Part shown: one piece after another, positions 2,719 through 12,242 of the stretch
Layout of the letters: each line of letters starts with the position of its first letter
How positions within the stretch are numbered: position 1 is the stretch's first letter
Assembly: GCA_937990725.1 (NCBI GenBank)
Contig: CALKQS010000008.1
Coordinates: 79,217 to 143,216 of the forward strand
From: an uncultured Candidatus Saccharibacteria bacterium
GTDB taxonomy: Bacteria > Patescibacteriota > Saccharimonadia > Saccharimonadales > Saccharimonadaceae
Direction of reading: 5' to 3'
Length of the DNA stretch: 64,000 bases
Position numbers and translations under genes: made by a program
Notes under the pieces: generated by a model
The model's input: the letters and a program-made list of their open reading frames with translations, nothing else
Database searches by the model: none
What the model was told of the DNA's origin: nothing

Positions 2719-4051
2719 AAGCTGGCGGTGGGTGCGCCAGCGATGGCGATTTTTGCTCGCCACGATTGGATTATTAATTACACTGAGTGTGTTCACGGTC
2801 CTGAGTTATCAACAGGGCCCGCGCTTGCGTCATGCAGTGCTGACAGATGACCCGAACACAGGCTACCAGACGCTCCAGCTGGAATTCAATCAGCCAGTCA
2901 AGCCAATAGAACCCCATGCAATACAAATCACACCTCAGGCAGACTTTACAGCTACGACAAACAATGCAACTGTGACGGTTCAGTTTCGGCAGCGTTTGCT
3001 TAGTAACACCCAGTATCGCGTGGTGATTAATCAGGTAGCTAGCACCTATACACAACAGCTCGCGGTATTAGATCATCACTTTGATACGCCACCAGCACAG
3101 CTCTACTATCTCAAGCACCGTGATCTTGCAGAGACAAAAACAGAATTCTACGCAGCACAAGCTACAGATACTATCGTGCAGATGAATCTGGCAACAAAGC
3201 ATGAGAAGACACTTTACCAAGCAGCACAAATTGTCGAATATGCAGTGGTGGGTTCTCGTATTGTTGTCCACGCAATGAATGACACGAAGGCTAGTGAATT
3301 GCATCAGGTTGAAACAAAAACTGGTGTTGTATCACCACTGCCTCTGCCCGGCAAAGGTACAGTGTCTCGCCTGAGAGCGATAGATAATGGAACGGTAGGG
3401 TATCTCTTTGCAAAGGCGGATAGCAAAGACAAGACTAACAATCTTATTGTGCATGATATTGCAGCGCAGCGCCACCACACTATACTTGGCCTTAACAGGC
3501 AGCCTTTACTAGTGTATGATTGGCGCCCAGTATCACGTGGCACAGCAATTGTGGTGCGAACTCGGGGTGAAGACGTACTGCTTGTTGACCCAACTGGAAA
3601 GCACGCTATGCAGCCACTTGGCCAGGCAGCGGCGCTTGGCGATGTATCGTATGATGGCAAAAGCATCATCATGATGAAAACGGGGGAGGGGTATTTTGCA
3701 CTCAACTTAGAAAGTAGCAAAAAATCACCCATTACTCACCAACAAGGAAATGATGCTATATCATTAGCTGCATTTTTACATACTCGCAGTGGCTATAGTA
3801 TGGAGGTAACGAGTGTCAATCAGCGGCACATCCTGCAGCGCCAAACAATACTCACCTACCCAGCCAAACGAGTGATTCATCAGACAACACCGCCGGCATA
3901 TACAACGAACATCACTGTGTCGCCAAATGATCAATATACCGCCATTGAGCAAAAAAGTACTGCTGATAGCTCCACCAAAACGCACATTATCGATAATAAA
4001 ACTGGCCAGACAGTGCACACACTTGATGGCAGGGCAGTAGTTTGGTTATAA
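2708..4051 (+). CDS. membrane-anchored hypothetical protein (beta-rich ectodomain)
   Basis: The ORF track gives 2621..4051. I prefer ATG 2708 (MNTKSWRWVRQRW followed by the TM helix LLATIGLLITLSVFTVL), which overlaps the upstream stop by 11 nt. No family recognised. Confidence 0.5.
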   Translation: MNTKSWRWVRQRWRFLLATIGLLITLSVFTVLSYQQGPRLRHAVLTDDPNTGYQTLQLEFNQPVKPIEPHAIQITPQADFTATTNNATVTVQFRQRLLSNTQYRVVINQVASTYTQQLAVLDHHFDTPPAQLYYLKHRDLAETKTEFYAAQATDTIVQMNLATKHEKTLYQAAQIVEYAVVGSRIVVHAMNDTKASELHQVETKTGVVSPLPLPGKGTVSRLRAIDNGTVGYLFAKADSKDKTNNLIVHDIAAQRHHTILGLNRQPLLVYDWRPVSRGTAIVVRTRGEDVLLVDPTGKHAMQPLGQAAALGDVSYDGKSIIMMKTGEGYFALNLESSKKSPITHQQGNDAISLAAFLHTRSGYSMEVTSVNQRHILQRQTILTYPAKRVIHQTTPPAYTTNITVSPNDQYTAIEQKSTADSSTKTHIIDNKTGQTVHTLDGRAVVWL

Positions 4052-4870: not shown

Positions 4871-4897
4871 TTAGCACTCTTGCAATTAGAGTGCTAA
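4871..4897. promoter_or_regulatory. CIRCE operator (HrcA binding site)
   Basis: TTAGCACTC-ttgcaatta-GAGTGCTAA is a perfect match to the CIRCE consensus TTAGCACTC-N9-GAGTGCTAA. It sits 21 nt upstream of the dnaJ ATG. Confidence 0.9.
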
Positions 4898-4908
4898 TTG
4901 GCTATACT
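4880..4908 (+). promoter_or_regulatory. dnaJ promoter (-35 TTGCAA / 17 nt / -10 TATACT) overlapping CIRCE
   Basis: TTGCAA at 4880-4885 lies inside the CIRCE spacer. A 17-nt spacer follows, then TATACT at 4903-4908. ATG is 9 nt downstream. Confidence 0.6.
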
Positions 4909-4917
4909 AAGACAGAT

Positions 4918-6036
4918 ATGGCGAAGCGAGATTATTATGAGGTGCTTGGTGTTGCCAAAAGCGCCAGCGATGATGACATCAAGCGGGCATTCCGCAAATT
5001 GGCAGTGAAGTACCACCCAGATAAAGCGGGTGGGAATGAAGAGAAATTCAAAGAAATTAATGAAGCGTATGAGGTCCTGAAGGACAAGCAAAAGCGCCAG
5101 CGGTATGACCAATTTGGCCATGCAGGCGTTGGTGGTGCCAGCGGTAGTGGTGGCGGTAACCCATTCGCTGGTTTTGGCGACTTTGGCCAGGGGCAGAATA
5201 TCCACTTTGATTTTGGTGATGGTGGCTTGGGAGATATCTTTGGCCAGTTCTTTGGTGGCGCTGCTGGTGGCAGTGCAAGCCAAGGTCCGTCGCGCGGTCG
5301 TGATGTTGAGACGAGTGTAACGCTCGAATTTGAAGAAGCGATCTTTGGTAAAGAAGTTGCCCTTGCACTAACGCTTGATGACGAATGCGAGCATTGTCAC
5401 GGTAGTACCGTCGAACCCGGCTCAAACCTTAAGAGCTGTCCAGATTGTAAAGGCACTGGCCAACGTGTGCGGACGATGAACACAATGTTTGGCCCCATTC
5501 AGCAGGCGGTAACGTGTGAGACGTGCCAAGGCCGGGGACAGATTCCTGAGAAGGCCTGTACAGTCTGCCAAGGTAGCGGTGTACAGCGCCGCGAGCAAAC
5601 GATTACCGTCAAGATTCCCGCTGGTATCGATAATGGCTCGACGATTCGTCTCCGTGGTCGTGGCGAAGCTGTAGGTGGTGGCAGTAAGGGTGATCTCTAT
5701 GTGCAGGTGCGGGTCAATCCACACAAGACGTTTAGCCGCGAAGGTGATGTAATCTTGAGTGAAGAGCATATTGGTATGGCAGATGCAGCGCTCGGTGCCG
5801 AGCTCGACGTTAAGACGGTCGATGGGACGATTACAATGAAGGTGCCAGCTGGTACGCAATCGGGCACCGACTTCAAGCTATCTGGCCATGGCGTGCCGCA
5901 CATGCGAAGCGACAAGCGTGGTCCCCATATTGTGACAGTAGTGGTCGACACCCCAACTAAACTAAACCGCCGCCAGAAGGAAATCCTCCGCGAGTTTAAT
6001 GACACATTAGGGCGGAAGGGGATATTTGGGTTGTAA
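4918..6036 (+). CDS. dnaJ: molecular chaperone DnaJ
   Basis: [13 protein letters not shown]-domain HPD motif, G/F-rich linker, four CxxCxGxG zinc-finger repeats ([32 protein letters not shown]). Start moved from the TTG at 4891 to ATG 4918. Confidence 0.95.
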
Positions 6037-6232
6037 CTCCAGGTAGGTACTGGTGTAGAATTAAACTACTTGTGGTGAAGGGTTTGATTCTAACCTGTTT
6101 GCTGGGTGGTGTAACTTTGCTAGATCATTTCAAAATTCGATAATGGAAACGTGGCTTTGCTCACAGTGCTCTGCAAATATAAGAGAAAGAGTCTTGATTT
6201 ATACGGTGGTTTATTGCTAAAATAGCCTCACT

Positions 6233-7813
6233 ATGATGACGAGCCATACTCTCGAGGATAGACCACTTCCATCTCATGATATGCAGGCGAAAGAAGCTCG
6301 GCGTAGCCAGAATAGCTCCGTCGATATAGATCCTGAAGTGTTCCGAGGAAAGTACCAGGAGCTTGTCGAGCGATCACCGAAAGTCATTGAATCACTTGTT
6401 CCCGATCAAGAAAGCAAAGAAGCGGCAATTGACAGTCTAATTACAGGTAGTGCCACGTCTTTTCAACAAAAGTATCCAGTCATTGCGGAGTATTCCGACG
6501 AAGATTATACAACCATACAAGATACTACAGAAGCGCTGATATCTATGGCCGAGTCTATGTCAGAGCCAGAGAGGACAGTCTATCTCCAGGCGATTGAGGC
6601 TCGCAAGCAAGAGGCGAACTTGATAGTAGCGATGAGGGATTATAAAGCAGCAACAGACCCAATAGCAAGAGAAGCAGTAGCACAGCGTTTTATGGAGATA
6701 AATATTACGCTCTATGGTGAGCCAGATAAGACAACATATGAGTCATTACTCGGCGAAAAAATTGCCAACATCTTTCATAAAAAGCGTAGTCAAAGCGCTG
6801 AGATAATCTTTCAGGAGCTTCGGAATCTTCTTCCAGAAAATGTACTAGATGGTACACGTGTACAAGATCGATTTCGTCCATCTACTGAGACCATGAGATG
6901 GATGAACGAAGTTGTTCATGGATTGTATGATAATATGCTTCGACATGTTGATAGCTATGTAGAAGCGCATAAATCGGAGCTTCAAATAGAATCACACGAT
7001 GAGACGGTTATAAAAATCCAGCCGACACACCTTCAAGATATCTTTCGGAATATCTTGACTGAGGAATTCCTTGCGTCATCCAAAGAGCCTGAAGAAAGTA
7101 GCCAGACAGGTGATATACAACAGGATGCACAAGCTGCGACAGACTGGGATAATACCGAGACGAGAAGTGCTGAGAAAGATACGGATTGGAAGATTGAGGT
7201 GACAGAGGCAAAATCAATCAATGTTGATCCAGACACAAGACATATCAGAATACCCCAAGACCGAGAAGCTATGTCTGTTAATGAAGTAAAACGACTAGTT
7301 GTGCACGAAATAGGTGTGCATGTCTTAACGCGAATGACTGGTGGTTCGACAAACCTTGAGCCGCTCGCACAGGGCTTAGCTGGTTTTAATGATACGCAAG
7401 AAGGGCTTGGGAAAGCAATGGAACACGCCCTTGAAGGAGAATATCAAGAAGCTGGTATAGATCACTATATTACTGCTGGGCTTGCCTATTTTGACAACAA
7501 GGACTTCAAAGATGCTTATGATGTGAAGTGGCGTCTCAAACTTCTCGAGAGCCTCAAGCCTGATCAAATACCAACACAAGCACAGATTGACAAAGCCAAG
7601 CAATGGGCAGCAAATACAACAATGCGTATCTACCGGGGTACTGATGACTTGCCACTATTTAAGGATCTCTGCTATTACAATGGGTCAAAAGAAGTATGGG
7701 AGTATCTAGAGAAAATTTGTGGTGATGATTTGCAGCTGAGTTTGTTGCTGGCTGGTAAAATTAATACCTCAAAGAAGCACCAGAGAGTCATACTTGAATC
7801 ACATAGTACTTAA
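6233..7813 (+). CDS. DUF1704 family metallopeptidase (QEGLA-motif protein; MATCAP-like carboxypeptidase fold)
   Basis: HExxH motif HEIGVH followed by NDTQEGLGKAMEHALEG (the family-defining QEGLA-type motif) and the downstream RIYRG...FKDLCYYNG. TAAAAT -10-like box 9 nt upstream of ATG. Confidence 0.75.
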   Translation: MMTSHTLEDRPLPSHDMQAKEARRSQNSSVDIDPEVFRGKYQELVERSPKVIESLVPDQESKEAAIDSLITGSATSFQQKYPVIAEYSDEDYTTIQDTTEALISMAESMSEPERTVYLQAIEARKQEANLIVAMRDYKAATDPIAREAVAQRFMEINITLYGEPDKTTYESLLGEKIANIFHKKRSQSAEIIFQELRNLLPENVLDGTRVQDRFRPSTETMRWMNEVVHGLYDNMLRHVDSYVEAHKSELQIESHDETVIKIQPTHLQDIFRNILTEEFLASSKEPEESSQTGDIQQDAQAATDWDNTETRSAEKDTDWKIEVTEAKSINVDPDTRHIRIPQDREAMSVNEVKRLVVHEIGVHVLTRMTGGSTNLEPLAQGLAGFNDTQEGLGKAMEHALEGEYQEAGIDHYITAGLAYFDNKDFKDAYDVKWRLKLLESLKPDQIPTQAQIDKAKQWAANTTMRIYRGTDDLPLFKDLCYYNGSKEVWEYLEKICGDDLQLSLLLAGKINTSKKHQRVILESHST

Positions 7814-7827
7814 ACTAAATACAAGCA

Positions 7828-9195
7828 ATGAAAGTTCAATACGATAAAAGTTTAAAGATAGCAGGCGTTAGTATACAGCCATGGGCAAGAATTGGGCCTG
7901 AGCAGTGGTTTGATAATTACAAAATTGCTTCACTAGCTGGCTGGAATATGCGCAGTCAGAATGTAGAGCACATGAATAGTCTCGCTTATGTGCGCGATCA
8001 GTGCGAGAGACCTTATACAGGTGAACTAACTACACAGGCTCTTTTGCAAGACCCAATATTCCAAGATATGGTAATAACTCATTTGCCCGAGTATCATATT
8101 TTTACGTATAAACCTTTTGTAATTCCTGAGCGATTAAAACAAAGCAGTTTGCAATTTTTGCCTAGAAACGATATGTACGCGTTGGCTCAGAAGTTTGAGA
8201 ATAAATCGTGGTTTCGGCGTATTTTTGCAGAGCGTCTTTGCAGCATTCCATCACATAAAATATACCCTTGGCGAGAAATGTTATCGGATGAGGAATATTT
8301 TTCTAATCTCTGTGATGGACGCAGTAAGATTGTTTTGCAAGATGCTGCACTTGGTGGAGGGAAGGGGTCGTTTATTGTCGATAGCTTCGAGTCGTTCTGT
8401 TCTGCAATAAATACAATGCAAAATAGCAATGGTTTGGTTGGTGAGGTAGTTGTATCAGACTATATTGCTGATGGCCGTGATTGGTCGGTGCAGGGCGTTG
8501 TAACGCGCTACGGGGTCTTCATAGGGCCAGTGCAGCGGCAGATTATTGCAGACCCGAATTTATCAAATACAAGCATTCCTGGTACTGAGAAGTTTTGCGG
8601 TATTGAAATATTAGCAGATGATCAACACACGTGGCAGAGTAGTCAGCTAACGAAAAATGCACGCGTTATAGGCCAGGAATTATACGATAGAGGATATCGT
8701 GGTATTTTTGGTGTTGATTCTTTGGTGACGGATGATACAGTGTATACTATCGAAGTTAATGCACGCATTACGGGCGCTACACCGCTTCTTACAATGAGCT
8801 ATAATGCAAAGAAGCATATCCCCTTCTATCTTCTTCATATCTTAGAGTTAACGAATGCCAATTATATTATTGAGGATAATTCATACAGTAATGACTATAA
8901 TGATTGCGCGCTAATGGTGCTTCATCAACGAGACAGTGAGACAGGCATCGCCGACAGTCCTCGGTCGGGATTATATAATGAAAAGATGCAAATCATAGGC
9001 GATATAATGTCATTCGATAGGTCTTCTTCTGCAAAACAGGTTTTTGTACAGGATTATACAAGGAGCGAGAGGTCTATTGCGCGAGGGTCTCGATTGGCGT
9101 CTATATTTACTAATTTTCGTGTTATGGATGAAGAGGGTGTGCTTATGAGAGAATCAAGAAATATTATTGATATAATTGAAAATAGTTCGAAGTAA
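7828..9195 (+). CDS. ATP-grasp domain protein (amino-acid/peptide ligase-like), unknown specificity
   Basis: Glycine-rich loop DAALGGGKGSFIV, central WSVQGVV...GPVQRQI, and C-terminal GIFGVDSLV...YTIEVNARITGATP (the E-x-N Mg/ATP motif of ATP-grasp enzymes). 14 nt after the DUF1704 gene. Confidence 0.6.
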   Translation: MKVQYDKSLKIAGVSIQPWARIGPEQWFDNYKIASLAGWNMRSQNVEHMNSLAYVRDQCERPYTGELTTQALLQDPIFQDMVITHLPEYHIFTYKPFVIPERLKQSSLQFLPRNDMYALAQKFENKSWFRRIFAERLCSIPSHKIYPWREMLSDEEYFSNLCDGRSKIVLQDAALGGGKGSFIVDSFESFCSAINTMQNSNGLVGEVVVSDYIADGRDWSVQGVVTRYGVFIGPVQRQIIADPNLSNTSIPGTEKFCGIEILADDQHTWQSSQLTKNARVIGQELYDRGYRGIFGVDSLVTDDTVYTIEVNARITGATPLLTMSYNAKKHIPFYLLHILELTNANYIIEDNSYSNDYNDCALMVLHQRDSETGIADSPRSGLYNEKMQIIGDIMSFDRSSSAKQVFVQDYTRSERSIARGSRLASIFTNFRVMDEEGVLMRESRNIIDIIENSSK

Positions 9196-9209
9196 ATAAA
9201 TGTATCGCT

Positions 9210-10718
9210 ATGAATATGGAGCAAGAAAGCAAGAATAGTATCAAAAAAGCGGACCTGTCACGGTATGGCATTACTTCTCGATTACTAATGAAGGAGGCGC
9301 TCCGAAAAGGGTACCAGGTCACAACAGTTCCAGGTCGTTTAGCAATATCACATGTGGTGCGCTGTGAAAAAGACGGCAAAGAGCTTTACTTTTATAATCT
9401 TAATACTGCACTAAACCCTTCATATGCAGTTCAGGTGAATGAGGATAAGATCTGGACGAATAACATACTACACCAATCGCATATACAAATACCAGATACA
9501 TATCCATTGAAAATAAATAGACCCGAAGACGTGGTAATTGACGATACACTTCGAAAAATGCTAGAGTCCCATGAGCGTCTTGTTGTCAAATCTGCTACAG
9601 CAAACTACAGTAATAATGTTCTTATTAACACTGGTGATGAAGAAGGTTTGCTTCGTGCAATACACCGTGTATATCAGAATAGTGGTGGACAACCTGATAT
9701 AATTGTTCAGCAAATAGTTTTTGGGCAAGAATATCGCTTCTTAGTGTTAAATAAAAAAGTCATTGCAGTAGCATATCGTCGACCACCATATGTTGTTGGA
9801 GATGGAGTGTCAACAATACGAACCTTGATAAGTAAAAAAAATAATAATTGCTCAAAGCATGGCAACAGACACGCTAGTTTAGTAGCAAAAATAAACATTG
9901 AAGATGTGTCGAGACATAAAGGTATTCACTTTTTGCAATACGTTCCCGAGAAAGGTTCTGTTGTTGAGGTTTTAGATACATTGAATCTGAGCAGGGGAGG
10001 TGAAGCAGTTGATGTCACGAGTTATGTGTCTGATGAACTCAAAACTATAGCAATTCAAGCAGCATCAGCGTGTTTTCTTGGTATTGCTGGCATTGATATT
10101 GTAACGGATAACATTAGTGGCGATGGAAATGATAGCTATGTCGTAAGAGTGAAGGCATCTCCAGGGATACGAATGCACCAATTTCCAACAGAAGGCAAAC
10201 CTCGGAATGTTGCACGAAAACTATTTCATGCTATTGAAAAAACGGCGCATCCTATCGGCAAAAAAATAGTCATGATTGGCCGAGTTGAAAAGGTTGCTTT
10301 GCCTGATTTTATTAATGAAAAATTTAAAGCTCGGATAGATACGGGGGCAACAGTCTCGTCTATATGGGCAAGTGATATTCGAGTTAATAAGACAGGCCTC
10401 TATTGCAAACTATTTGGTGAAGGATCCCCAGTGTATACTGGTGAGGAGTTGCATTTTTCTGAGTATTCCATGCGCTCTGTTCGGAGTTCGAATGGTTATG
10501 AGGAATTGCGGTATCAAGTTGTCATTAATGTAAGTTTGGCAGGAAGGCGAGTGAAAGCAAAAGTTACACTAGCAGACAGATCGGGGCAGATCTACCCAAT
10601 GCTGATTGGAAGAAATATTTTGCGTAATAAATTCATCGTTCATGTTGCAGAGGGTGATATTGATAAGAAGGCTGAAAGTAGTAATCGTCAAGAACTACGC
10701 CAAAATGGACTACAATAG
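9210..10718 (+). CDS. fusion protein: ATP-grasp ligase (cyanophycin-synthetase/RimK-like) plus C-terminal DUF785 retropepsin-like (RimB-type) protease domain
   Basis: N-terminal two-thirds: IIVQQIVFGQEYRFLVLNKKVIAVAYRRPPYVVGDGVSTIRTLI, as in the CphA/RimK-type ATP-grasp core. C-terminal 140 aa: IGRVEKVALPDF...KARIDTGATVSS...LIGRNILRNKFIV, matching the DUF785 (PF05618) D-T-G-A aspartic-protease-like signature. Confidence 0.75.
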   Translation: MNMEQESKNSIKKADLSRYGITSRLLMKEALRKGYQVTTVPGRLAISHVVRCEKDGKELYFYNLNTALNPSYAVQVNEDKIWTNNILHQSHIQIPDTYPLKINRPEDVVIDDTLRKMLESHERLVVKSATANYSNNVLINTGDEEGLLRAIHRVYQNSGGQPDIIVQQIVFGQEYRFLVLNKKVIAVAYRRPPYVVGDGVSTIRTLISKKNNNCSKHGNRHASLVAKINIEDVSRHKGIHFLQYVPEKGSVVEVLDTLNLSRGGEAVDVTSYVSDELKTIAIQAASACFLGIAGIDIVTDNISGDGNDSYVVRVKASPGIRMHQFPTEGKPRNVARKLFHAIEKTAHPIGKKIVMIGRVEKVALPDFINEKFKARIDTGATVSSIWASDIRVNKTGLYCKLFGEGSPVYTGEELHFSEYSMRSVRSSNGYEELRYQVVINVSLAGRRVKAKVTLADRSGQIYPMLIGRNILRNKFIVHVAEGDIDKKAESSNRQELRQNGLQ

Positions 10719-10772
10719 AGACACAGAGCTTATAATAAGCAAAATCGATAAAATAATAGTACGAGGTATGGA

Positions 10773-11690
10773 GTGAAAATCGCAATACTCAGCAACGGCA
10801 ATGTGAACTACTCAACGCTTCGCCTCAAGGAAGAGGCGGAGAGGCGTGGACATAGTGTGAGAGTGATTAAATACCGCAAATGTTATGTGACGATTGATGA
10901 GAAGAACCCAACGGTGATGTATGATGGTGAAGCAATCGATCAGTATGATGCAATAATTCCGCGCATTGCAAGCTATATGACTCGCTATGGCACAGCAGTA
11001 GCGCGCCAATTAGAAATGGCGTACCCACGCACGCTTTTTGTTAATCGCTCGATTGCGATTACCCGGGCGCGCGATAAACTGCGTTCGACACAGCTGCTAG
11101 CCCGAGGTGGAGTAGCTATTCCTAAGACAGTGTTTAGCCGTAACTCAGCCGATATAGACGATCTCCTTAACGAACTTGGTGGTACGCCAGTTATCATCAA
11201 ACTCGCTCGTGGTACTCATGGTAATGGTGTGGTGCTAGCGGAGACGAAGAAGGCGGCAAAGTCAGTGCTTCAGGCGTTGTACCTCACCAACGAGGATGGG
11301 ACAAACATCCTGTTGCAAGAATTTATTCGTGAGTCAGCTGGAGTAGACATCCGCGCCTTTGTGGTGGGGAGCCGGGTAGTGGCGAGTATGAAGCGCCAGA
11401 GCTTAGACGATGACTTTCGCTCTAACCTCCATAAGGGAGGCGAAGGAACGCCGATTCGCTTGACGGATACCGAGCGTCGCATGTGTTTGCGGGCAGCTAA
11501 GGCGATGGGCTTGACGGTGGCGGGTGTTGACTTTATGCGCTCGAGTCGTGGGCCGTTGGTGCTTGAGGTCAATGCGAGCCCAGGCTTTGGGATAGAGAAA
11601 ATTACGCGGCGCAATGTGGCCAAGCCAATCATTGAATATATTGAGCGCAATGCGAAGCGGCAGCACAAGAGGGATCGTGTTGGGGCATAA
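10773..11690 (+). CDS. rimK: RimK-family alpha-L-glutamate ligase (ribosomal protein S6 modification type)
   Basis: GTG start, MKIAILS...RLKEEAERRGH, PVIIKLARGTHGNGVVL, LLQEFI...G.DIRAFVVG, and VAGVDFMRS..GPLVLEVNASPG are typical RimK blocks over the full 305 aa. Confidence 0.85.
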   Translation: MKIAILSNGNVNYSTLRLKEEAERRGHSVRVIKYRKCYVTIDEKNPTVMYDGEAIDQYDAIIPRIASYMTRYGTAVARQLEMAYPRTLFVNRSIAITRARDKLRSTQLLARGGVAIPKTVFSRNSADIDDLLNELGGTPVIIKLARGTHGNGVVLAETKKAAKSVLQALYLTNEDGTNILLQEFIRESAGVDIRAFVVGSRVVASMKRQSLDDDFRSNLHKGGEGTPIRLTDTERRMCLRAAKAMGLTVAGVDFMRSSRGPLVLEVNASPGFGIEKITRRNVAKPIIEYIERNAKRQHKRDRVGA

Positions 11691-11756: not shown

Positions 11757-12242
11757 ATGATGTTGATTGGATTGCTTGCTGGCATGGCTGTGGTTTTGGC
11801 TGGTTTGGTATATGTAGCGAAGCGGCATTTTGGGCTGCCAGTCATGGGCCTGGCGGTCGGTATGGTAGTGACGCAGCTATGGGCGGCAGATGTCATGCCG
11901 TATGCTGCTGGGGTTGGCATAGGCATTGACCGATCTGCTTTGCTTGCAGCGGTGACGATTGTGCTGACGGTGCTACCAGCTGTGGTGCTGGTGTGTTGCG
12001 GCTCGGTGGTGAGTCAGCGCTGGTGGCGCATTGGTGGCTCACTGATCTTTGGTGTTGTGGCAGTGTATGTGTTGTTTGGCGCGCTGAGTAGTCTCGTACC
12101 ACCAGTTGATGAGACAAGCAAGACGGTTATGGCAGCGCTGGATGGGTCTCATGCAGCGGTTGTAACGATAGGGTTTGCATGTGCCCTTGTTGACACGCTC
12201 GTGGCTCGTACAAAGGGTGTAAAACCACACAAGAAAAAGTGA
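11757..12242 (+). CDS. small integral membrane protein, hypothetical
   Basis: Four predicted TM helices. The ORF track starts at TTG 11733, but the -10 box lies inside that extension, so I place the start at ATG 11757 (MMLIGLLAG). Confidence 0.55.
   Translation: MMLIGLLAGMAVVLAGLVYVAKRHFGLPVMGLAVGMVVTQLWAADVMPYAAGVGIGIDRSALLAAVTIVLTVLPAVVLVCCGSVVSQRWWRIGGSLIFGVVAVYVLFGALSSLVPPVDETSKTVMAALDGSHAAVVTIGFACALVDTLVARTKGVKPHKKK

Follow-up and report, generated by a model that had tools for sequence, protein, structure and literature searches.

Organisation of the locus

The stretch of DNA analysed here (the window, 64,000 nucleotides (nt) from positions 79,217 to 143,216 of contig CALKQS010000008.1, assembly GCA_937990725.1, an uncultured Candidatus Saccharibacteria bacterium) contains four consecutive plus-strand genes which encode a MATCAP-like (DUF1704) peptidase, an ATP-grasp ligase, an ATP-grasp domain fused to a RimB-like protease domain, and RimK. 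An earlier note, made from the sequence of the window, had described this block as a composite module for adding and trimming peptide tails. Our comparative analysis demonstrates that the four genes are an enlarged form of a Saccharibacteria-wide 'rim' locus adjacent to dnaJ, and that the block is genuinely co-conserved.

The open reading frames (ORFs) occupy 6233-7813 (526 amino acids, aa), 7828-9195 (455 aa), 9210-10718 (502 aa) and 10773-11690 (305 aa, GTG start), separated by gaps of 14, 14 and 54 nt, exactly as first read, and gene calling done independently on six further public assemblies recovers these products at identical lengths (526, 455, 502 and 305 aa). Exact and near-exact copies of the block are found in human oral metagenomes and in metagenome-assembled genomes named Candidatus Saccharibacteria, and the host is an oral member of this group (TM7). 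Upstream lie radC and dnaJ, and downstream a hydrophobic protein of about 160 aa is followed by yebC and comEC on the opposite strand. The features of the locus are as follows.

4891..6036, plus strand: dnaJ, upstream anchor of the locus (TIGR02349 DnaJ_bact, 413 bits)
6037..10771, plus strand: exchangeable AT-rich cassette, consisting of an intergenic leader and genes 1 to 3 (blastn against the two-gene allele)
6233..7813, plus strand: gene 1, MATCAP-like (DUF1704) gluzincin (Pfam PF08014)
7828..9195, plus strand: gene 2, AG455, three-domain ATP-grasp ligase (Pfam ATP-grasp_3, AlphaFold2 model and Foldseek)
9210..10250, plus strand: gene 3, N-terminal ATP-grasp domain resembling the G domain of cyanophycin synthetase (TIGR02068, PDB matches)
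10266..10667, plus strand: gene 3, C-terminal RimB-like retropepsin domain (PF05618)
10773..11690, plus strand: gene 4, RimK, alpha-L-glutamate ligase, outside the exchanged cassette (PRK10446, rimK_fam)
11757..12242, plus strand: p160, small hydrophobic protein with apparently several transmembrane segments and a basic C-terminus (…KPHKKK; gene calls of 160-161 aa)

All the motifs on which the first assignments had been based (HEIGVH, TQEGLG, GGGKGSFIV, EVNARITG and D-T-G-A) are present, and the domain assignments of all four proteins hold in Pfam and NCBIfam profile searches and in PDB and Foldseek comparisons.

The MATCAP-like peptidase

Residues 282-397 of gene 1 match the Pfam family MATCAP/DUF1704 (PF08014) with 75.5 bits (E 5e-21) against a gathering threshold of 27, which bears out the alignment of the HExxH/QEGL region to DUF1704 that had been read from the motifs. 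The score against the NCBIfam QEGLA equivalog TIGR02421 (61.6 bits) is far under the cut-off of 338.65, and by these profile scores gene 1 is a relative of that equivalog and not a member of it. The HExxxH motif, HEIGVH, corresponds to H358-E359-I-G-V-H363, and TQEGLG supplies E390, a putative third metal ligand; both the H358/E359/H363 motif and E390 are kept in 17 of 18 homologues. The same HExxxH motif characterises TMCP1/2 (PMC10499314). The product is predicted to be a cytoplasmic C-terminal exopeptidase with a helical N-terminal domain preceding the catalytic half (AlphaFold2 mean confidence, pLDDT, 82). The catalytic half is strongly constrained among strains (ratio of nonsynonymous to synonymous divergence, dN/dS or omega, 0.03-0.10).

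When the AlphaFold2 model was compared with the PDB by Foldseek, the top three matches were all to human MATCAP (7z5g/7z6s, probability 0.97-1.0), and these matches were weak (E 0.04-0.18, template modelling (TM) score 0.36-0.41). Neither the profile of gene 1 nor its catalytic half found a match among PDB sequences; the link to MATCAP comes from Pfam and Foldseek only, and the identity to human MATCAP is 13-16%. The DUF1704-like family is large, with 1,956 clusters at 50% identity matched by the Saccharibacteria profile at E ≤ 1e-3 and 273 at E ≤ 1e-30.

Several observations on individual copies can be added. Residues 282-315 of gene 1 (window 7076-7177) fall in an insert of about 35-45 residues, acidic, rich in Gln and disordered (pLDDT below 50), which is missing from most homologues. 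Loci L069, L075, L081, L087 and L089 (about 7000-8340) have the MATCAP-like gene broken into two or three ORFs, and homologue P0022 is frameshifted across the HExxxH region; the split ORFs could represent either pseudogenisation or assembly frameshifts. A partial DUF1704 protein that is 90% identical to gene 1 (P0020) has been deposited under Mogibacterium diversum, which probably reflects contamination by a Saccharibacterium during binning.

The ATP-grasp proteins and the RimB-like domain

The earlier note counted three ATP-grasp ligases, and profile and Foldseek comparisons place both 7828-9195 and the N-terminal part of gene 3 among ATP-grasp folds and families. The product of gene 2, AG455, matches Pfam ATP-grasp_3 (2.4e-10), carries the motifs GGGKGSFIV and EVNARITG, and has weak NCBIfam matches to PRK06524 and the Asp-Met ligase LdmS. 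Its AlphaFold2 model (pLDDT 90) matches PurK, PurT and biotin carboxylase with a Foldseek E of 1e-16, and also the ATP-grasp peptide ligase 8ynd, which on the modelled fold assigns AG455 to the three-domain ATP-grasp enzymes of the PurK/PurT/PurD/biotin-carboxylase/L-amino-acid-ligase structural class. Since all 25 homologues compared keep D297 and E309-x-N311-x-R313 and the Gly-rich loop is intact, AG455 is probably an active amino-acid or peptide ligase. The AG455 family is confined almost exclusively to this locus, and is in some copies fused to RimB.

The ATP-grasp domain of gene 3 is closest to the G domain of cyanophycin synthetase and to the GshB-like (C-terminal) half of GshAB. It matches TIGR02068 over residues 70-342 (1e-57; 195.6 bits against a cyanophycin synthetase cut-off of 850), and its PDB matches are CphA1 (7lg5, 7e-29), GshAB and CphA2. 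The E-x-N motif provides two Mg-ATP ligands in ATP-grasp enzymes, and where about 100 homologues, fused or unfused, show E-[VILTMA]-N at this position, gene 3 has R313-V-K315. The loss is limited to the oral four-gene clade, in which every copy reads RVK, GVK or RVM and some copies in addition change the following SPG to SPE. Constraint on the ATP-grasp domain is relaxed relative to the attached RimB domain (omega 0.21-0.36 versus 0.03-0.17). From the sequence comparison, this domain is probably no longer a ligase but has been retained, perhaps as an adaptor or scaffold, which makes it a candidate pseudoenzyme adaptor. The loss of E-x-N together with the relaxed constraint leaves two likely active writers, RimK and AG455. 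The proposal of a composite writer/eraser module thus stands with respect to a genuine conserved locus, but with two plausible writers instead of three, since the ATP-grasp of gene 3 has R313-V-K315.

The C-terminal domain of gene 3 matches PF05618 over residues 355-486 (57.1 bits against a cut-off of 27; 2.4e-15), as well as RimB/RloA families of NCBIfam and the PDB entries 2pma and 9g59. Its 43.6 bits against the NCBIfam RimB equivalog are under the cut-off of 200, and judged by its profile scores it is a divergent family member in fused form. The catalytic D377-T-G-A (IDTGAT) is present in gene 3, and D-T/S-G-A is kept in 21 of 21 fused and standalone copies. In the window the RimB domain lies 54 nt upstream of rimK, and standalone rimB overlaps rimK by 4 nt in loci L007, L010 and L012.

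Gene 4 has the Pfam domains Rimk_N and RimK and an intact LEVNASPG (E-x-N). It scores 320.2 bits against PRK10446 (1.3e-95), narrowly under the equivalog cut-off of 331, and 249.7 bits against rimK_fam (cut-off 143.4), and matches the RimK structures from Pseudomonas (7qyr, 2e-85) and Escherichia coli (4iwx, 4e-81). RimK is nearly invariant among strains, with dN/dS of 0.00-0.01.

An exchangeable cassette

Two loci, L007 and L040, have flanks nearly identical to those of the window strain (amino acid identity 98% for RadC, 97% for DnaJ, 99.7% for RimK, 100% for YebC and 95% for ComEC). Between these flanks they carry a 2.27 kb cassette with a MATCAP-like gene whose product is only 59% identical to gene 1, followed by a standalone RimB of 174 aa, without AG455 and without the ATP-grasp fusion. 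In blastn comparison with this two-gene allele, identity is 90-94% up to position 6036 and from position 10772, with only patches of 66-73% between, so that homology breaks at the dnaJ stop codon (6036) and one base before the rimK start (10772). Positions 6037-10771 therefore constitute an exchangeable allelic cassette whose recombination boundaries lie at the conserved genes on either side. In the gene content, no integrase, repeats or tRNA were seen at the edges of the cassette.

The first three genes had been judged AT-rich from single lines of sequence, and whole-gene values agree: GC content is 43.3, 40.6 and 39.6% in genes 1 to 3 (38, 37 and 30% at third codon positions), against 52-54% in dnaJ, rimK, yebC and comEC. 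Both alleles are AT-rich (GC 40-43%), and in other lineages, too, MATCAP and RimB genes have a higher AT content than the genes around them. Among four-gene strains, cassette and flanks show equal synonymous divergence (dS; 0.1-0.5 in the cassette), and the cassette's dN/dS of 0.09-0.32 indicates purifying selection, compared with 0.00-0.06 in the housekeeping flanks and about 0 in rimK. The cassette genes are functional and mostly vertically inherited among the four-gene strains. The low GC content was considered as proof of recent foreign acquisition and rejected, because the other allele and other lineages are equally AT-rich and cassette dS equals flank dS; the GC dip is a property of a fast-evolving segment and not a sign of recent foreign origin.

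Distribution and linkage

For the species scan, one genome per GTDB species was taken and the search was anchored on the MATCAP-like protein, which gave 79 loci, all from Saccharibacteria; these were annotated with hidden Markov models built from the window proteins and their homologues. The arrangement MATCAP-RimB-RimK is present in 30 loci, and the window form, MATCAP-AG455-AGcph::RimB-RimK, in 22 (one with gene 3 split). Seventeen loci have one or two other extra ATP-grasps (the CphA-G-like AG328/AGcph, the RimK-like AG304 or a second RimK) or a partial set, and the remaining 10 are lone distant MATCAP paralogues. The slot after dnaJ thus contains, in 69 of the 79 loci, MATCAP-like, RimB and RimK genes with 0-2 extra ATP-grasp genes of several families, and in almost every locus dnaJ immediately precedes the module. 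The module had been called unexpected in a reduced genome; this view has to be abandoned, since the core is conserved phylum-wide in Saccharibacteria.

A second scan, of metagenomes and anchored on AG455 (80 loci), places this family nearly always after dnaJ and before RimB, RimK, DUF192 or p160. One contig labelled Nomurabacteria reads DnaJ - MATCAP - ATP-grasp (318 aa) - AGcph::RimB - RimK. Fusions between the parts are recurrent: besides AGcph::RimB in gene 3 of the window, AG455::RimB occurs in P0277, P0296, P0334 and L015, RimB::RimK in L129 (a Saccharibacteria metagenome locus) and ATP-grasp::ATP-grasp in L127. Outside Saccharibacteria, a DUF1704 gene adjoins or overlaps an ATP-grasp gene in Rhizobiaceae megaplasmids and in Photobacterium, i.e. 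in two proteobacterial classes without synteny to Saccharibacteria. The fusions, the 4-nt overlap of rimB and rimK, the cassette-wise movement and this cross-phylum pairing of DUF1704 with ATP-grasp argue for functional linkage of the block. Together with the 22 species loci of four-gene form and the MATCAP-RimB-RimK core, they support the expectation that the adjacency would prove to be conserved.

In the Rhizobiaceae megaplasmids the genes form a tight triad of an N-formylglutamate-amidohydrolase-like gene, a 632-aa QEGLA/DUF1704 gene and a PRK12458 'glutathione synthetase' ATP-grasp, and in Photobacterium the ATP-grasp gene overlaps the QEGLA gene (triad and pair loci: L181 3884-7655, L182 3869-7640, L183 4326-7320). 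One DUF1704 record of this set is named 'tyrosine/phenylalanine carboxypeptidase domain-containing protein'. In oral Saccharibacteria there are distant MATCAP paralogues with 27-30% identity (L092-L097, about 7000-8150, and L043), which have no ATP-grasp, RimB or RimK within 7 kb and whose neighbours are truB/pnp or lack Pfam matches.

In some soil Saccharimonadales a protein of 365-394 aa without family match fills the slot between dnaJ and AG455 (L014 6808-7992, L015 6890-7987, L123, L124, L141, L144, L146, L148, L158, L166, L170). This protein was considered as a divergent MATCAP and rejected at an hhalign probability of 0.1. Distant soil lineages from metagenomes (L139-L172) show the order DnaJ - (protein without assignment) - AG455-like ATP-grasp - DUF192 - p160, with RimB and RimK undetected. 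Since these loci keep an AG455-like gene without detectable RimB or RimK, they suggest that a ligase of AG455 type can take the place of RimK there.

The small protein p160 is co-directional with rimK and kept downstream in nearly all loci (about 84), with a C-terminus of …KPHKKK or …KKH, and in many lineages a DUF192 gene intervenes between rimK and p160. It has no Pfam or NCBIfam match and is a possible operon member. A scan for promoters and terminators found nothing over shuffled expectation except a TG-extended -10-like site at 6194-6223.

The candidate acceptor

Ribosomal protein S6 (RpsF) was searched for in the window and in 183 loci, with the proteins from E. coli, Thermus and Bacillus and one Saccharibacteria S6 as queries. 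The only Saccharibacteria S6 recovered was that of L077 (Saccharibacteria UBA6175, 3022-3366), whose C-terminus …TETKEEE makes S6 plausible as acceptor. None of the ORFs of the window ends in Glu-Glu. In L077 a lone MATCAP-like gene (6911-8296) is situated 3.5 kb downstream of rpsF-ssb-rpsR-efp, apart from rimBK genes.

Discussion

Taken together, the data are best explained by a locus for the writing and erasing of acidic peptide tails at C-termini, of which the window would carry an enlarged allele; we estimate the probability of this reading at roughly 55%. By comparison with its homologues, RimK would add alpha-linked glutamates to a protein C-terminus, most likely that of S6, and could also make free poly-alpha-glutamate, both being activities described for RimK (PMC11957791, PMC7343187). 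The RimB-like retropepsin domain would cut runs of Glu endoproteolytically and may stimulate RimK, as RimB is reported to cleave polyGlu and to stimulate its partner (PMC11957791, PMC7343187). The MATCAP-like HExxxH metallopeptidase would then trim the tail from its C-terminal end, one residue per step; the TMCP/MATCAP enzymes, which are carboxypeptidases of the HExxxH type, take C-terminal Tyr and Glu off tubulin tails, and act as deglutamylases shortening polyglutamate chains (PMC10499314). More tentatively, AG455 might act alongside RimK as another active ATP-grasp, attaching a further residue or else priming or capping the tail, and the CphA-like ATP-grasp of gene 3, in a binding or oligomerising role, might dock the protease on the substrate or on RimK.

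A number of points weigh against such tail editing. The window has no rpsF, and the sole match among the 183 loci is that of L077. The likeness of gene 1 to human MATCAP is remote, as judged from the missing PDB sequence match and Foldseek values of E 0.04 and TM 0.41, and the loss of E-x-N is a strong but indirect pointer to inactivity of the gene 3 ATP-grasp. Furthermore, dnaJ, comEC, yebC and ruvC travel together with the locus, and because gene order is generally conserved in Saccharibacteria, adjacency alone is weak evidence of linkage. Finally, no fusion of MATCAP to the other parts was seen among the loci, and lone MATCAP paralogues exist.

The main rival, which we regard as clearly less probable but to be taken seriously, is that the locus makes and recycles free poly-alpha-glutamate or a mixed short peptide, used as a cytoplasmic store, osmolyte or signal, with RimK and AG455 as synthetases, RimB as endo-depolymerase and the MATCAP-like protein as exo-depolymerase. 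RimK does make free poly-alpha-Glu under stimulation by RimB (PMC11957791), the gene 3 and AG328 ATP-grasps resemble the G domain of cyanophycin synthetase, AG455 resembles L-amino-acid ligases, and a small membrane protein is always found downstream. On the other hand, the RimK of this locus is a close homologue of S6-modifying enzymes, one Saccharibacteria S6 ends in EEE, and the CphA-like domain is without the M and N domains and, in the window, also without E-x-N. Free-polymer synthesis and tail editing are not mutually exclusive.

It is rather unlikely that the block merely reflects inherited synteny without shared function, so that only RimB and RimK form a system and the MATCAP-like protein works with DnaK/DnaJ or on unrelated substrates. 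In its favour, MATCAP always follows dnaJ straight away, often at 30-40 nt, in genomes of generally conserved gene order, is never fused to the other parts and has lone paralogues elsewhere in the genome. Against it, MATCAP is swapped with RimB and the ATP-grasps as one cassette, two proteobacterial classes have DUF1704 genes that adjoin or overlap one for an ATP-grasp, and the eukaryotic members of the family reverse the products of ATP-grasp enzymes (TTL/TTLL; PMC10499314). A recent foreign island of genes 1-3 (mobile element, or defence or conflict system) unrelated to the host rimK is very improbable, for although the GC drop is sharp (about 41% versus 52-54%), the boundaries clean and the locus polymorphic among strains, all homologues of genes 1-3 come from Saccharibacteria or other Candidate Phyla Radiation bacteria in the same slot, the alternative allele is equally AT-rich, cassette dS equals flank dS among four-gene strains, and no integrase, repeats or tRNA were noted in the gene content at the boundaries.

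The proposed tail-editing locus can be compared with several known systems. In Pseudomonas rimBK, the glutamate ligase RimK and the retropepsin-like endopeptidase RimB act on RpsF (PMC4741518, PMC7343187, PMC11957791). The present locus shares with Pseudomonas rimABK/rimBK (PMC4741518, PMC7343187, PMC11957791) a close RimK homologue and a RimB-like D-T-G-A domain immediately upstream of rimK, but differs in having no RimA (no EAL domain was found in the block or its flanks by Pfam scan and gene calls), a MATCAP-like metallopeptidase as first gene, up to two extra ATP-grasp genes, and a RimB attached C-terminally to an ATP-grasp other than RimK; it also stands after dnaJ and is allelic between strains. 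Fusion of a RimB domain to an ATP-grasp is known from the RimBK hybrids of Flavobacteriales and Rhodobacterales (D. psychrophila DP2392; PMC11957791), and RimB::RimK is also seen here in L129. In these hybrids RimB is N-terminal and RimK C-terminal, whereas in the window the ATP-grasp precedes RimB, is CphA-G-like and without E-x-N, and is followed by a separate RimK.

With CphA1 and CphA2 the gene 3 ATP-grasp shares the alignment to the G domain, which extends a peptide at its C-terminal carboxylate, while the M (Mur-ligase-like) and N domains are missing and E-x-N has been lost in this clade. The proteobacterial pair of QEGLA (TIGR02421) and PRK12458 has in common with the present locus a DUF1704 peptidase gene that adjoins or overlaps that of an ATP-grasp ligase, but is without RimB or RimK and in Rhizobiaceae has the N-formylglutamate-amidohydrolase-like third member. 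The eukaryotic tubulin code (TTL/TTLL versus MATCAP/TMCP, CCP and VASH; PMC10499314) shares the enzyme logic and two families, an ATP-grasp that extends an acidic tail and an HExxxH MATCAP-family peptidase placed to trim it; here the ligases are of RimK, CphA and PurK type and not TTL, with a ribosomal protein or a free polymer as the likely target.

RimB's pairing with RimK, as well as the RimBK hybrids, is already known. The module as a unit had been thought to be undescribed, and a search of the accessible literature on DUF1704 with ATP-grasp, QEGLA, Saccharibacteria RimK and bacterial MATCAP found no description of it. What appears to be new is the MATCAP-family peptidase as a regular third member of rimBK, the variable insertion and fusion of non-RimK ATP-grasps, and the exchange of cassettes at strain level. 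Iyer et al. (2009) reportedly surveyed ATP-grasp ligases that have opposing peptidases as neighbours, and that survey may include related pairings.

It is possible to go further and to speculate, though we consider this doubtful, that the locus represents a bacterial 'C-terminal tail code' on a ribosomal or other acidic-tailed protein, in which ATP-grasp writers of varied specificity are opposed by a MATCAP exopeptidase and a retropepsin endopeptidase and strains carry alternative cassettes. In that case the MATCAP side of the tubulin code would have a prokaryotic counterpart in this locus, from which it may perhaps have evolved.

Glutamylation of the ribosome by RimK and RimB reprogrammes translation in Pseudomonas, and the retention of both proteins in the minimal genomes of Saccharibacteria suggests that they are important for these epibionts. 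The strain-level polymorphism of the cassette provides natural 'knock-in/knock-out' comparisons. The bacterial DUF1704/QEGLA family, which is large and uncharacterised, gains a testable role, namely the trimming of products of the adjoining ATP-grasp ligases, and this proposed role would link the family mechanistically to the eukaryotic tubulin detyrosinase/deglutamylase.

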